Source: Bacteriovoracaceae bacterium (GTDB lineage Bacteria; Bdellovibrionota; Bacteriovoracia; Bacteriovoracales; Bacteriovoracaceae). From it: a DNA stretch of 64,000 bases. Below the pieces are notes generated by a model. It did not search any database, was not told the DNA's origin, and was given only the letters and a program-made list of their open reading frames with translations. The translations under genes were made by a program, and so were the position numbers. The stretch is from positions 1 to 64,000 of the forward strand of contig JABIHA010000056.1 in NCBI GenBank assembly GCA_018649885.1. The letters are read 5' to 3'. Of this stretch, positions 87-53,848 are shown one piece after another (the stretch's first letter is position 1; every line of letters starts with the position of its first letter).

Positions 87-260
87 TGTAAAGTATGTGT
101 CGCTAATAAATAGTAAAGTATGTCTCGGAAAGTTCATGAATGGACCGGACTTAGACGAACGTGATGAATTTGGAAAACTTACACCTTTTTAAAATTTATT
201 TTGGGAGGGCAAGGGCAACCGCCAACGGCAATAAAAAGGATAAGGTAGAAAAAAAGCAAA

Positions 261-291
261 AAAAAGAGGTGAATAAATTCACCTCCCTTTT
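261..291. terminator. Intrinsic terminator, likely bidirectional, downstream of the histone gene
   Basis: GAGGTGAA-TAAA-TTCACCTC stem with an A-run on the left (U-run on minus) and CCTTTT on the right. Confidence 0.75.
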
Positions 292-319: not shown

Positions 320-607
320 TTATGCCATGAAGTCGTGAGCTCTAACAGTTTTTCTACCGTTAGCTTTTGCTCTACAAGCAGCTTGATCAATCAACCAGTA
401 TACCCACTGATTAATTCCTTCAAGAGCGTCCCCTGAAACATTAAGCTTATGTGACTTAAGAGCTTCTTTAGTTTTGCTTCCAACTAGAAGCATTTCTTTT
501 GATCTTCTAGTACTTGTTGCTTTTCTAGCAGAAGTAGTTGTTTTTCTAGTTGTTGTCTTTGCTGGTGTTCTTCTTTTAGTAGTAGTTGCTTTTCTTTTAG
601 TAGCCAT
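320..607 (-). CDS. Bacterial histone-fold protein (Bd0055/DUF1931-like) with basic N-terminal tail
   Basis: LLVGSKTKEALK...NVSGDALE...AACRAKANGRKTVRAHDF matches the prokaryotic histone fold (RKTV-x-x-x-D signature); AAGGAG SD upstream of the ATG at 607; terminator downstream. Confidence 0.88.
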   Translation of the reverse strand: MATKRKATTTKRRTPAKTTTRKTTTSARKATSTRRSKEMLLVGSKTKEALKSHKLNVSGDALEGINQWVYWLIDQAACRAKANGRKTVRAHDFMA

Positions 608-739
608 CTCGAAACTCCTTTTAATACCCCTAATTGAGGCTTTTATCGAAACACATTGTTTTTGTAATCAAAATATTAAATGCTACTCTTCTTTCACCTA
701 CAAGTGTTTTTTTGATCTTTTAGAAAAAAAAAGCGTTTT

Positions 740-1054
740 TTAGGCGTTTATAGGCCTAATAGTGATATTTCCCAGTATTTTGGCCCTGCATGTGAGTCTT
801 AAAGTCTGGGTTTTAAGCTCTGGATGTTTCTCATATACTGAATCTAAGGTGTTTTGTTCCACTGCACTTGCTTTTGAAATATTCTCAGCTCCCTCCAAAA
901 CTTCTACTTTGCATGAGCTGCAACTTCCTGCAAGGCATCCAGCGGGAAGCTTATAACCTTGATCTTCGACACCTTCCCAGATAACACTTCCCGAATTTAG
1001 CGAAAATTCTTTAGTAATTTCTCCAGATTGGCCTGCTAATGACACGATGGGCAT
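740..1054 (-). CDS. 2Fe-2S ferredoxin-type protein
   Basis: GCLAGSCSSC...RLTC (C-x4-C-x2-C...C) motif. Confidence 0.88.
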   Translation of the reverse strand: MPIVSLAGQSGEITKEFSLNSGSVIWEGVEDQGYKLPAGCLAGSCSSCKVEVLEGAENISKASAVEQNTLDSVYEKHPELKTQTLRLTCRAKILGNITIRPINA

Positions 1055-1203: not shown

Positions 1204-2319
1204 ATGTTAAGTTTTGAAAAACTGTACTCTATGGGGCATGAACAAGTTGTCTTCCTTAGTGATCCGTCTTGTGGACTTAAAGCTATTATAGCCGTGCATA
1301 ACACTACACTAGGGCCCGCTCTTGGTGGAACTAGGATGTGGCAATACAAAAGTGAGGAAGATGCTTTAGAGGACGTTTTGAGACTTTCTAAAGGCATGAC
1401 TTACAAAGCTGCAATTTCTGGACTCAATTTGGGTGGTGGAAAAGCAGTTCTAATTGGTGATCCAGACAAAGATAAGTCTGAAGCTCTTTTTAGATCTTAC
1501 GGAAGATATCTTGAGTCTCTTAATGGCAGATATATTACGGCAGAAGACGTCAATATAGGTGTTGCAGATATCGAGCATATTTTTACTGAAACAAGGAATG
1601 TTGTCGGTGTGGCAAAAATCCACGGTGGTTCTGGTAACCCAGCTCCTTTTACGGCTCTTGGTGTATTTAGAGGAATTGAAGCTTGTTGCTACAAAGTTTT
1701 TGGAACAAGAAGCCTCAGTGGAAGAACTGTGGCATTGCAAGGTGTTGGCTCTGTTGGGCAAAACCTTATGAAGCTTCTGACTGATGGTGGAGCTAAGATC
1801 TTCTTTACTGATATTAGTGAAAAAAATATTCAAACTGTTAAAGAGAATTTTCCAGAAGCTGAATATGTTGGTCCTGATGAAATCTATGACGTTGATGCTG
1901 ACATTTACACTCCTTGTGCACTTGGTGCAACTATCAATGATGCCACTATTGGCCGATTGAAAGTTAAAATAGTAGCAGGGGCCGCTAACAACCAATTAAA
2001 AGAAGACCGTCACGGTGCTGAGCTGAAAAGTCGCAATGTTTTATACGCTCCCGATTATTTAATTAATGCTGGAGGCCTAATGAATGTTTCTATTGAATTT
2101 GAAGGGTGGAGTGAAAACAAGTCTCTTCGAATGGTAGATACAATTTACGATACAACTCTTAGGATTTTTCAACTCTCTGATGAACAAAATATTCCAGTTA
2201 ATCAGGCCACTGATATTCTCGCTGAGAGAAGAATTAATGAAATCAAAAATATCAAAACAAGTTACTTGGGCAATGTTTCCCATAGATTCCCAGGAAGAAA
2301 AACTAGACATAACCTTTAA
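1204..2319 (+). CDS. ldh: Leucine/valine dehydrogenase (Glu/Leu/Phe/Val DH family)
   Basis: GPALGGTR, GMTYK, GGGKAV, TAEDV, QGVGSVG, AGAANNQL motifs; AGGAG SD. Confidence 0.93.
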   Translation: MLSFEKLYSMGHEQVVFLSDPSCGLKAIIAVHNTTLGPALGGTRMWQYKSEEDALEDVLRLSKGMTYKAAISGLNLGGGKAVLIGDPDKDKSEALFRSYGRYLESLNGRYITAEDVNIGVADIEHIFTETRNVVGVAKIHGGSGNPAPFTALGVFRGIEACCYKVFGTRSLSGRTVALQGVGSVGQNLMKLLTDGGAKIFFTDISEKNIQTVKENFPEAEYVGPDEIYDVDADIYTPCALGATINDATIGRLKVKIVAGAANNQLKEDRHGAELKSRNVLYAPDYLINAGGLMNVSIEFEGWSENKSLRMVDTIYDTTLRIFQLSDEQNIPVNQATDILAERRINEIKNIKTSYLGNVSHRFPGRKTRHNL

Positions 2320-2350
2320 TTGAATTGTTAAAGGTTTTTTATTTTTTTTA

Positions 2351-2391
2351 TACCTGGAGACTTTTGAATAAAAGCTTCAGGTTTCCTTTTG
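2351..2391 (+). terminator. Probable intrinsic terminator after ldh
   Basis: ACCTGGAG...CTTCAGGT stem followed by TTCCTTTT. Confidence 0.5.
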
Positions 2392-2537
2392 ATACCCTAA
2401 TAATTTTACCTAAGTAGCTAATTCCCGACTTAATATGACCCCCAATTGGGAAAAATCTCTTCCATTGCCTAAAATCGACTCTGCACGTTAAAATTAATGA
2501 AAGTGAGGACCAGTAACTTGGTTATAGTTGATTAATT

Positions 2538-3722
2538 ATGTCAGTTAAACGAAAAGAAAAATTCATAAGTATCGTAGGGAGGATTGACCTCGGGGTGGCC
2601 TATACCCTTTTGAAGGTCTTTCTTGTGACGCTTTTGTGTTACGTGTTTACTCAAAGGGCACAGGCCCTCATTGGGTATGAAGATGCAATTTTTCCAGAAC
2701 CCATAGCCTCTGCAAGAGCACTGGCCATCGGGAATGCTTACGTTGCTGGTGCCAATGATTCAAATGCTGTGTATTACAACCCTGCTGGACTTGGTTCAGT
2801 GAAATGGTTTCACCTCCATCTAGAAAATTTTGCTTTTGAGGTAAATAAGAATTTGGGTAGGATGGGCGCAGGTGGAAATCTTCGAAATGCCAGTTCAAAT
2901 TTTTCCAGGATCACAAATATGGAGGGGATTAGGCAGGTCCTTTCAGTTAATCGAGATACAATTTATCACAGTAGATATCAATTCTTTCCCAATATAACCT
3001 CCAGGTTTTTTAGCCTTGGATATATGTATTCTAAAAAAACCAGAGCAATTATTGGGAAAGATCCCCCCGATGGAACTAAGGCACAATTTGAATATGCAGG
3101 GAGAACTGATCACGGTCCGGTTGCAGCAATAAATCTATCCGTAATGGGTGGTATTTTTAAATTAGGCGCCTCAGCGACTCTTCTCAATAGATCTGAGGTG
3201 AAAGGTGAGCAAGACTATGATGTTTCATTTGAAAAGACGGAGGAGAATTCATATAAGGGTGTAAGTCTTTATGGTGTTATCGGATCCAAGCTAACTCTTC
3301 CCGTTAGATTTCTTCCTACCTTTGCAGGGAAAATGAATAATGCTTTTAGACAAAGGTTCAGAAAAACTGGCGGAATTGATTCTCCTGACTATATTAAGCC
3401 TTCAGTAGATGTAGGTTTTTCAATTACTCCCCAAATAGGAAAAACATCTAGAATTCACTTAGAGGTAAATTACCGAGACATGTACCTAGAACATAAAGAT
3501 GTGGCTTCATCTAGAAGAATTGGTTTTGGTATGGAAATTGATTTGGCCAGAAGGTTTCACATAAGAGGTGGTTACGCCGATGGCTTTGGATCCGGTGGCA
3601 TTGGAATCAAAACTAAACCACTAGAAGTGGATATTACATCTTACTCAGTAGATCTAACCAACGACAGATACAAAGGCAAAGAGGATAGACGTTTCATGTT
3701 CTCCCTCTCCGCCGGAATTTAA
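2538..3722 (+). CDS. Outer-membrane beta-barrel protein (PorV/TraF/FadL-like)
   Basis: Signal peptide, ARALAIGNAYVA...AVYYNPAGL N-terminal plug motif, amphipathic strands, C-terminal FMFSLSAGI; start codon uncertain. Confidence 0.7.
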   Translation: MSVKRKEKFISIVGRIDLGVAYTLLKVFLVTLLCYVFTQRAQALIGYEDAIFPEPIASARALAIGNAYVAGANDSNAVYYNPAGLGSVKWFHLHLENFAFEVNKNLGRMGAGGNLRNASSNFSRITNMEGIRQVLSVNRDTIYHSRYQFFPNITSRFFSLGYMYSKKTRAIIGKDPPDGTKAQFEYAGRTDHGPVAAINLSVMGGIFKLGASATLLNRSEVKGEQDYDVSFEKTEENSYKGVSLYGVIGSKLTLPVRFLPTFAGKMNNAFRQRFRKTGGIDSPDYIKPSVDVGFSITPQIGKTSRIHLEVNYRDMYLEHKDVASSRRIGFGMEIDLARRFHIRGGYADGFGSGGIGIKTKPLEVDITSYSVDLTNDRYKGKEDRRFMFSLSAGI

Positions 3723-52600: not shown

Positions 52601-53848
52601 AAGAAAAGCTCAGATGAGGCGATTGTGACTTGGGAAAATGTTGGTGACAGTAATATCGAGCTAAGTGCGGGACTTTCTGTTCTATTATTAAAGTTTCCAC
52701 TTATCAAGGCAAATATCAGGAATCTTAATAAGGTTGATAGAAGTTATAGCTTTGATTTAAATAAACCAACTGAGTTAAAACTTGTAGCTAATTCAATAAA
52801 TAAGATGCTTCCAACTCAAGCTGATTTTCCAGAAGCTAACAAGTTTCGCGTTGATAAACTCCAAATGAATGAATTGGGGCTTATGGCAACATTTTTTAAT
52901 ATATCTGATGCAGTAAATGTTAGACAGAGAAGAATTGTTGCTGAAACTGACTTCACTGATCCTCAGAAAAAAGACAAGACAATACTAGTGTTTGAAAAAA
53001 CAGAAAAGGTTATCTCTAAGGTTGGTCTTCTTCCTGTTAGCAGAGATATTTACACGACAAAAGCAATCTTTGATCAAGATGAAAATCTATACGCAAGCTT
53101 TAAATTTGACTTCACTCTACCAGGTGCTACTAGAGATAAGTTTTTAAAATTTTATGAAAGAAATATCAATCTCTTTCCTAAGGATCTTGTAACTTTCGAC
53201 ATCAGCACAATTAACTACTACGTGGGAGATGTAACTATGAGTAGTGAGGTGATCTTATCAGATGAAGGTATTTATGAACTCTTTGGTCCAGATGAAGATG
53301 GAAATGTTAAGACAAAGAACGATATTTGTCTGATCTACGCCAAAGTTAATGAAGTTGAAAATGATAACACTCAGTGGTGTGAAAAATTGGTGGACGGAGA
53401 TATCTTTACCGTGGCCAAAGGTAATCATCCATTGGCCGCAAAGGCTTTTATAAGAGCTTTCATAAGGGCACAGAAGACATACCAAGAAATTGCAGATGAA
53501 ATTGGTATCACTAAAGGCAAGAAAAGAAGAAAAGCTTTTAAGTTACTCAGAAAGATCGTTAGTGTTTTAAATAAAACCAATAAGTACAGAAGAACACTTG
53601 ATGTACTTTTAGAGTATGTTTCTGATGACAATTACTATAGAAATGCACTGATTGATGTAACAAGGCTTAGATCAATGACTGGTAGAAACTATGAAGTTGA
53701 AATAAGTGATCATTCAAACGGAAACTTTGCTCCAATTAAAGAATACCTTGGGTCGAATCCAAGTTCATATCTAGACAATGTCTTAACAATTGTCCTCGAT
53801 ACACTTGGAAACTTATACGCAAACCCAATATTAATTAAGACAAAGTAG
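49679..53848 (+). CDS. Large secreted protein (1389 aa) with an atypical kinase-like domain and an unknown C-terminal region
   Basis: Signal peptide (VATA); GTSPK..FKLKF..EVNVE..AALGF; WIEDKDVKDGN; SDIG; GGAGG SD. Confidence 0.7.
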   Translation: MPYHSFKRAMVLSILSISTLSQVATADVIGSFSETTNHPGYVTTNKNSGQYKPVVLPKHYRGDGLEYGSPSQIIKGYIKDGQVNSDKINQVIKGLDYYVSQNMLLECQMDILKDYIKKGKTSKELAKDYDKIGNKVCTKYPIKEESVVQGFYTKYKKSRVFVTAEIAKDRLEKAKSYGISIAMNDQGLNSSKGLLFVENLIEGLEINEAIRVEQLDKGLEKGAVSKISQTIKNLLRKYTIKKGRPEASNLLIPSRLLSKYPGRKYFSSDELSTEKVKKQLKRVGKDVSSLTPGNTGLWRSPKTPIGEYNTANHNNGEPIGTLLNHMSRPEAEALLNPEVEISAVYKKSKHVNGTSPKMAVMISGQKFKLKFITNKLKAPPHMSILETFERFMMHGMEVNVEPVTNNIAAALGFTVDPVHFQKSIRLYLPGSDFNKSYEKFIEKMKEDFDPGLSIESAFEDGQWPDGTARKVIHFDKKLQKNYLLLRNVTLEKKSDKLSDRNIGHFAKTSFGRSLKRDHRAMGLFLAWIEDKDVKDGNAKVKYIPGKDPENYSDYKIAYSASDIGSGIGMGFPNLYSKEFVKSHKVDRNGDVKKITLGFHSAYPVDILDAVTLDDAKWFASLIMQLSPRQIYTAMREGGRYPKVIALTLTETMLKRRDDLVKALGLVGTTFTNEFGQTIKYELTSQINEENVENYVLTGRSKTGIIYDPSESLDLSKYFKFGLLTDPDNSIYSSEDDIFLRYWGSSMHFGKNIDEKSAIEFKASLTKGLWNDLISLVGPVISDEVQLTNAGIEIDGSDLNLIPFCGGEKCFFQGAKVGVEGFIPFRYYTKNPFFNEEDPKSNKYWVVDVFRMAFVLGTPSATMDEIFGDSDLGIVGDNSLFSAQGTVGFEWVKIRGVRNYIEAKEELRSRSRKAIPKKNFKQNLLASMENGDMLISSSFLGGKAMAKFKYPLFYLLNAEIKAKTERIVTNRTMVMKKSSDEAIVTWENVGDSNIELSAGLSVLLLKFPLIKANIRNLNKVDRSYSFDLNKPTELKLVANSINKMLPTQADFPEANKFRVDKLQMNELGLMATFFNISDAVNVRQRRIVAETDFTDPQKKDKTILVFEKTEKVISKVGLLPVSRDIYTTKAIFDQDENLYASFKFDFTLPGATRDKFLKFYERNINLFPKDLVTFDISTINYYVGDVTMSSEVILSDEGIYELFGPDEDGNVKTKNDICLIYAKVNEVENDNTQWCEKLVDGDIFTVAKGNHPLAAKAFIRAFIRAQKTYQEIADEIGITKGKKRRKAFKLLRKIVSVLNKTNKYRRTLDVLLEYVSDDNYYRNALIDVTRLRSMTGRNYEVEISDHSNGNFAPIKEYLGSNPSSYLDNVLTIVLDTLGNLYANPILIKTK

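Follow-up and report, generated by a model that had tools for sequence, protein, structure and literature searches.

The histone locus and its genomic setting

The window (the whole 64,000-nucleotide stretch of DNA analysed) carries, on its minus strand, a gene for a histone of 95 amino acids with a long basic N-terminal tail. The features recognised at the locus are as follows.

320..607, minus strand: gene for a tailed face-to-face (FtF, alpha3) histone of 95 aa, assigned by reading of the open reading frame, homologues, PDB match and model
497..607, minus strand: codons 1-37, predicted disordered basic tail with a net charge of +14 (model and composition)
323..496, minus strand: codons 38-95, core with a histone fold in which alpha2 is short and alpha3 truncated, residues R79, N83 and R85, and the RD clamp R85-D92 (alignment and models)
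615..620, minus strand: Shine-Dalgarno sequence AAGGAG, 7 nt 5' of the ATG of Met1 (sequence reading)
260..291, minus strand: intrinsic-terminator-like hairpin and T run, 29 nt past the stop codon (consensus match)
327..644, minus strand: cover by a contig from a seawater RNA library, Shine-Dalgarno sequence and tail codons included (run X1)

The histone gene is real, well formed and stands alone. The reading frame and protein letters quoted in the original prediction were recovered unchanged, and the strand, which had not been given, is minus. Also as predicted, a strong AAGGAG precedes Met1, and the sequence holds no Shine-Dalgarno-like word before the Met39 codon. The terminator ascribed to the gene corresponds to the hairpin at 260-291, which on the minus strand has 14 pairs followed by a T run and matches the consensus; three terminator-like sites occur in positions 1-1300, versus 0.8 ± 1.1 in shuffled sequences. 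A search for sigma-70 promoters 5' of the gene found none.

One contig of the RNA library of run X1 matches positions 327-644 with zero differences and zero gaps, and the region 721-2000 has no cover in the same library. The tail letters are thereby confirmed by a source other than the assembly, and the cover agrees with a transcript that stands alone, in a library that may include DNA, that is perhaps from the same campaign as the genome, and from which start, strand and level of the transcript are not readable. Run X2 gave no cover of the histone gene, and three further runs contained next to none of its words.

The neighbours of the gene are ordinary, comprising a 2Fe-2S ferredoxin (740-1054, minus strand) and a Glu/Leu/Phe/Val dehydrogenase resembling leucine dehydrogenase (1204-2319, plus strand). 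Neither these nor the third neighbour occurs beside the histone in any of 100 other loci, whose flanks extended over 1.5-2.5 kb. Positions 1-137 of the window are repeated at 99-100% identity on the ends of seven other contigs, and occur in the RNA library too; they probably represent one end of an insertion element at which the assembly was interrupted. Just past the terminator lies a short degenerate repeat (190-260); over ten other contigs carry copies of it at 76-90% identity, frequently in inverted pairs.

The genome itself measures 5.4 Mb and is 92% complete. A contaminant origin of the contig was rejected in view of its GC content (37.2% vs 38.2 ± 1.3%) and its tetranucleotide correlation of 0.995 (rank 34 of 58). 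Five full-length HU/IHF matches and one partial match were found in the genome, together with a second histone of 157 aa (locus L002, G000:C133, approximately 2090-2560, plus strand), which combines a dimer-type core with a Ser/Gly-rich linker and an N-terminal Cys/His cluster spaced as in ZZ histones. This ZZ-type protein has no Pfam match over the cut-off, and the family profile found neither a Bd0055-type nor a doublet histone in the genome. A search of viral contigs gave 35 pattern matches, none of which was confirmed.

Fold and class of the histone core

Searches of Pfam and NCBIfam with the histone protein returned no family at E<=1. Since no more than 10 of the 90 aligned homologues have a CBFD_NFYB_HMF match at E<=0.1, both collections miss the FtF histone family, of which 390 homologues of this protein were retrieved at E<=1e-3. 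The PDB sequence search returned prokaryotic alpha3 histones only, namely HLp, HBb/Bd0055 and HTkC, with an E value of 5.6e-10 for HLp (9QT0) versus 6.5e-4 to 7.8e-4 for HBb. In the AlphaFold2 model, built from a 90-row alignment, helices span residues 43-51, 59-82 and 90-94, with block pLDDT values of 92-95 at residues 41-90 and of 51-52 at the helix-free residues 1-30. The top Foldseek match of the model is again HLp 9QT0 (rmsd 0.7 Å, TM 0.95), followed by HTkC and HBb, and the probability is 1.00 with four prokaryotic histones. The histone fold that had been read into residues 38-95 is therefore upheld by helices predicted at high confidence and by this match, and a fold search against known histones, as had been suggested, returns that fold. 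The relative named for it, Bd0055, is to be replaced by the FtF histone HLp, which is nearer in sequence and in shape.

The chain ends at residue 95, with an alpha3 truncated to 5 residues in the model and a short alpha2 that aligns with HLp. As this alignment is gap-free, HLp numbering maps onto the present protein by adding 30, and the HLp tetramer residues R49, N53 and R55 correspond to R79, N83 and R85. Among the 90 aligned homologues N83 and R85 are invariant and R79 is kept in at least 90%; among the best 120 of the 390 homologues, R/N occupy the tetramer positions in 119 and K/N in one. The RD clamp (RxTxxxxD), here R85-K-T87-V-R-A-H-D92, is invariant in 90/90 aligned homologues, and 6 of the 9 DNA-contact residues of HLp are identical (S44, K45, K47, K51, G59 and T87). 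As judged from alignment and models, the core is a face-to-face alpha3 histone like HLp of Leptospira, and not one of the Bd0055/HBb kind.

When residues 36-95 were modelled as four copies, the score was 0.93, versus 0.00 for the best of 3 controls, with contact agreement of at least 96% and partner pLDDT of at least 92 across the runs. In a calibration set that differs from this run of four copies with its own alignment, 20 of 30 solved pairs attained the score mark, as did 1 of 23 single chains. The scored copy contacts its dimer partner and one copy of the other dimer. The second-dimer contacts, reported for one copy, involve residues 75, 78-79, 81-83, 89, 91-92 and 94-95, which correspond to the tetramer surface of HLp, so that the model predicts the homotetramer typical of FtF histones, joined through the C-terminal end of alpha2, loop 2 and alpha3. 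Because the score takes in the dimer interface and may reflect likeness to the solved structures 9QT0 or 9F2C, which the predictor may have learned, it supports the class assignment, not binding in the cell.

That the protein is instead a Bd0055/HBb-type dimer histone, bending or coating DNA and with a tail added, appears very improbable. It belongs to the same alpha3 superfamily and its match to HBb is appreciable (E about 7e-4, TM 0.82-0.85), but bacterial dimer histones are defined by lacking both tetramer residues (PMC11390915, accessible portion), HBb having Ser and Asp at these positions in the alignment, whereas R79 and N83 are present here. The confident contacts with a second dimer in the model also argue against it.

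In the tree of the core (59 columns, bootstrap unsettled), the protein groups with rows of the family and of Bdellovibrionota (97/84) as the earliest branch, and the family histones fall among records titled Bacteriovoracaceae and Halobacteriovoraceae. The grouping suggests a Bacteriovoracaceae-like bacterium as the bearer of the gene. A horizontal origin was considered and rejected on account of this placement; no transfer is claimed. An FtF-level match, defined as a family-profile match at E<1e-20 (none fell between 1e-20 and 1e-14), occurs in 76 of the 150 family genomes, counting the present one. A further 68 have weak matches only (E above 1e-14; those examined are ZZ-type) and 6 have no match. 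Two large genera (19 and 27 genomes) have no FtF-level match, so the gene is patchy in the family. The present gene adds one member to a family of histones, tails included, that was described in 2024-2025.

The basic N-terminal tail

Residues 1-37 consist of 13 T, 7 K, 7 R, 5 A, 3 S, 1 P and Met1 without any acidic residue, a recount that agrees with the figures given earlier, and the tail has a net charge of +14, the core one of +3. Thr makes up 35% and Arg 19% of the tail, versus 41% K, 22% A, 12% T and 5% R in the pooled homologue tails. To judge from the sequences, the traits that set this tail apart are modest: it is long (37 aa are reached by 5 of the 120 best homologues out of 390), its Ser+Thr share (43%) is the highest among the 92 homologue tails drawn from the same 120, and it is far richer in Arg than the tails of the family (0.50 of the basic residues, the next value among 31 tailed family proteins being 0.20). 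All 7 Arg codons of the tail are AGA, which would be one transition from Lys AAA, just as Thr ACN would be from Ala GCN. Thr/(Thr+Ala) declines with the GC content of the locus (rho -0.44, P 0.0016, n=48 distinct tails, kinship uncorrected), and some of the Thr excess is accordingly a matter of base composition. No dependence on GC was seen for the Arg share (rho 0.13, P 0.39), which leaves the Arg excess without such an explanation. A Pseudobdellovibrionaceae record (L023) of a different branch has a comparable T/R tail, and the Thr/Arg flavour is proposed to be a variation, by lineage, on the usual Lys/Ala tail.

Possession of a tail is by contrast not unusual. The original prediction had proposed a survey across orthologs and had implied that a tailed bacterial histone is a rarity. 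Among the best 120 of 390 homologues, self included, 92 have a tail of at least 15 aa with a net charge of at least +5 (median length 19), so that basic tails are the majority state, as is already in print: the accessible text of Schwab et al. 2024 (PMC11390915) describes H3-like basic tails in most bacterial FtF histones. When starts were picked by Shine-Dalgarno sequence in genome loci, a qualifying tail was carried by 52 of 89; these remained from 101 loci after 6 unparsed ones and 6 others (a ZZ histone, three miscalled or cut starts and two distant short proteins) were set aside. Tailed members occur in records titled Bdellovibrionota, Myxococcota, Planctomycetota, Acidobacteriota and Krumholzibacteriota. 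Within the family, lengths range from 3 to 42 aa, and of 55 distinct proteins 31 have tails of at least 15 aa and 17 of at most 7 aa, from which it follows that a long tail is not required for retention of the fold. On these sequences tail presence is the family norm.

A long basic tail that is probably translated had been predicted, and the Shine-Dalgarno sequence at Met1 only, as well as a composition typical of the family, agree with it. The tail could otherwise be an artefact of gene calling, with the true start at Met39, which we regard as hardly credible. Of the 120 listed homologues, 82 do have Met here, and a longer database form of HLp (77 aa) was rejected on Shine-Dalgarno grounds (PMC12701072, accessible portion). 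However, Val is found there in 28 of the 120 and I, P, T or S in 10, a possible start at this position is without Shine-Dalgarno sequence in 43 of the 44 family loci having one, and the RNA-library contig covers both the tail and its Shine-Dalgarno sequence.

TSARKATS, a segment of the tail, had been said to resemble histone H3 superficially, most likely by convergence. The resemblance is indeed superficial and not a homology, since the tail matches the H3 octapeptide at 4 of 8 residues, which is equalled in 50% of residue shuffles (P 0.50). ARKS is a modification motif of eukaryotic H3-type tails. It is absent from the present tail and present in 1 of the 92 homologue tails, and homology to H3 is ruled out.

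The repeated DNA words adduced for an origin of the tail by local duplication are both present, GTTGCTTTTCT at 516 and 585 and CTTTTAGTAG at 573 and 594, yet they are only borderline above chance. In codon shuffles P is 0.15 for the longest repeat and 0.07 for repeated 10-mers; with the protein fixed and the codon usage of the window, the values are 0.07 and 0.014. RK[AS]T occurs twice in the tail (P 0.005, for a pattern picked after looking). The tail may plausibly have arisen by local duplication. Other family tails show plainer repeats, with AAPKK-type units, which makes slippage a fair general source of changes in tail length. Elsewhere in the genome (G000:C40, plus strand, near 53230-53770) lies a frame of 178 codons made up almost entirely of KKKATAKK-type repeats, resembling H1-type bacterial proteins and the usual FtF tails.

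The tail could alternatively be translated yet nearly neutral, an AT-rich extension drifting in length by slippage with little functional gain. The spread of lengths within one family is in line with this, and Lys-rich tails are said to arise readily by frame extension into AT-rich upstream DNA, Leptospira histones being named among them (PMC10919886, accessible portion). Nevertheless, acidic and bulky residues are almost absent from long tails, whose K/A composition is the same in records of several phyla and over 34-75% GC, so that AT-driven drift alone is insufficient, and a MAKKK-like start is common to the family. We therefore consider a neutral tail quite unlikely.

A regulatory platform, in which reversible phosphorylation of Thr/Ser or acetylation of Lys would switch nucleoid compaction or transcription, possibly in step with the predatory cycle, is unlikely, though somewhat less so. 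Neither the regulation by modification nor the role in the attack phase that the original prediction had suggested found support in the analysis. The Ser+Thr content is in its favour, as is a bacterial precedent, HupS, in which acetylation weakens DNA binding by the Lys-rich tail and controls DNA binding and spore nucleoid compaction (PMC11229371, accessible portion). In the genome, three matches to protein kinases exceed the cut-off, and an HDAC-like gene, a Sir2 gene and the ZZ-type histone are also present, with one copy of each of the two enzyme genes. These kinase, HDAC-like and Sir2 families are, however, also found in 8-10 of 14 control genomes and thus are no evidence for modification, a search for SET in the 92% complete genome gave no match, and a reading of the tails by ZZ proteins is judged unlikely by Schwab et al. 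(PMC11390915, accessible portion). Furthermore, the family tails have no conserved motif: past the first five residues no position exceeds 55% of one residue, mostly K. Finally, the likeness to H3 is at chance level, half of the basic residues are Arg, which is not acetylatable like Lys, and the Thr content follows low GC.

Two FtF genes are present in 16 of the 76 FtF-bearing family genomes, the present genome having one. The tail lengths of the pairs (in aa) are 28/5 in G083, 20/5 in G084, 26/5 in G087, 23/5 in G089, 12/5 in G121, 17/5 in G131, 16/5 in G134, 15/3 in G023 and 7/5 in G009, while G001 has two tailed copies (20 and 21 aa) and G133 was read for one copy. In 8 genomes (loci L131-L144, L106, L114 and L016) a K/A tail of 12-28 aa is paired with a partner of 3-5 aa. 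No publication on pairs of tailed and tail-less FtF genes was found in the accessible parts of the open-access literature. The pairs constitute a natural test bed for tail function, with mixed tetramers a possibility. It is conceivable, at a low probability, that tailed and nearly tail-less paralogues form a small histone-variant system tuning nucleoid compaction in Bacteriovoracaceae, and that the single-copy lineage studied here uses its Thr/Arg-rich tail as a phosphorylation switch across the predatory cycle. If true, no regulated histone tail in a bacterium would precede this one, and its evolution would have been separate from that of the eukaryotic and Asgard tails.

Proposed mode of action and comparison with known systems

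We consider it probable, from sequence, models and analogy, that the protein wraps DNA as a homotetramer and that its four basic tails contribute to affinity and compaction in the manner of the H1-type tails of other bacterial proteins. The fold, the FtF residues, the disordered tail and the Shine-Dalgarno sequence at Met1 come directly from computation. HLp forms stable tetramers in solution, and these wrap about 60 bp of DNA with no sequence preference (PMC12701072, accessible portion). By analogy, two handshake dimers would assemble into a ring-shaped homotetramer, joined through the ends of alpha2, loop 2 and the short alpha3, and this tetramer would likewise wrap about 60 bp with no sequence preference. 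Composition and family pattern suggest that translation begins at Met1, in which case each tetramer would bear four tails, of +14 each compared with +3 for a core. The same two lines of evidence suggest that the tails may neutralise flanking or neighbouring DNA and so raise affinity and compaction. Selection appears to act on charge and disorder, without a sequence code. As five full HU/IHF genes coexist with it, the histone need not be the main chromatin protein of the genome.

No experiment on any bacterial histone tail was found in the accessible portions of the open-access literature, PMC10627809, PMC11789641, PMC11764897 and bioRxiv 10.64898/2025.12.06.692711 and 10.64898/2026.07.02.735847 included. 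The one characterised bacterial FtF histone, HLp, is nearly tail-less (PMC12701072, accessible portion). Whether bacterial histone tails provide plain charge or a regulated surface is directly testable with this protein and the natural pairs: its long T/R-rich tail is an extreme natural variant, and tailed/tail-less pairs occur naturally in non-pathogenic predators.

The closest known system is HLp of Leptospira perolatii (PDB 9QT0-9QT2; Hu et al. 2025, PMC12701072, accessible portion), which has the same fold with 46-47% identity over 56-57 residues, and shares the short alpha2, the truncated alpha3, the RD clamp, the tetramer residues and most DNA-contact residues. It differs in being 63 aa long with few N-terminal residues, in contrast to the basic tail of 37 aa here. 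Also, the Leptospira concerned are without HU, whereas the present genome has five HU/IHF genes and the ZZ histone, and no smc neighbour was seen beside the histone gene. FtF histones are known from the class Bacteriovoracia, their tails being common, mostly positive and 'H3-like', with no conserved sequence (PMC11390915, accessible portion); compared with that class, the present tail is long and T/R-rich instead of K/A-rich.

HTkC of Thermococcus kodakarensis (PDB 9F2C) has the fold (rmsd 1.1-1.2 Å) and the FtF residues in common with the protein, but is archaeal, tail-less and only 37-38% identical. Its R45A mutant is reported, in the accessible text, to behave like a dimer, which gives weight to the Arg kept as R79 here, presuming that the two residues match. 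Bd0055/HBb of Bdellovibrio bacteriovorus (PDB 8FVX, 8CMP) shares the alpha3 superfamily and the RKTV..D motif, at 34-35% identity, but is a strict dimer that bends DNA and is without the tetramer R and N. As for the tail, the H1-type Lys-rich tails of Streptomyces HupS and mycobacterial HupB are likewise low-complexity, basic, disordered extensions on a DNA-binding core; although they are C-terminal, placed on an HU fold and not homologous to the FtF tail, they are probably its best functional analogue.
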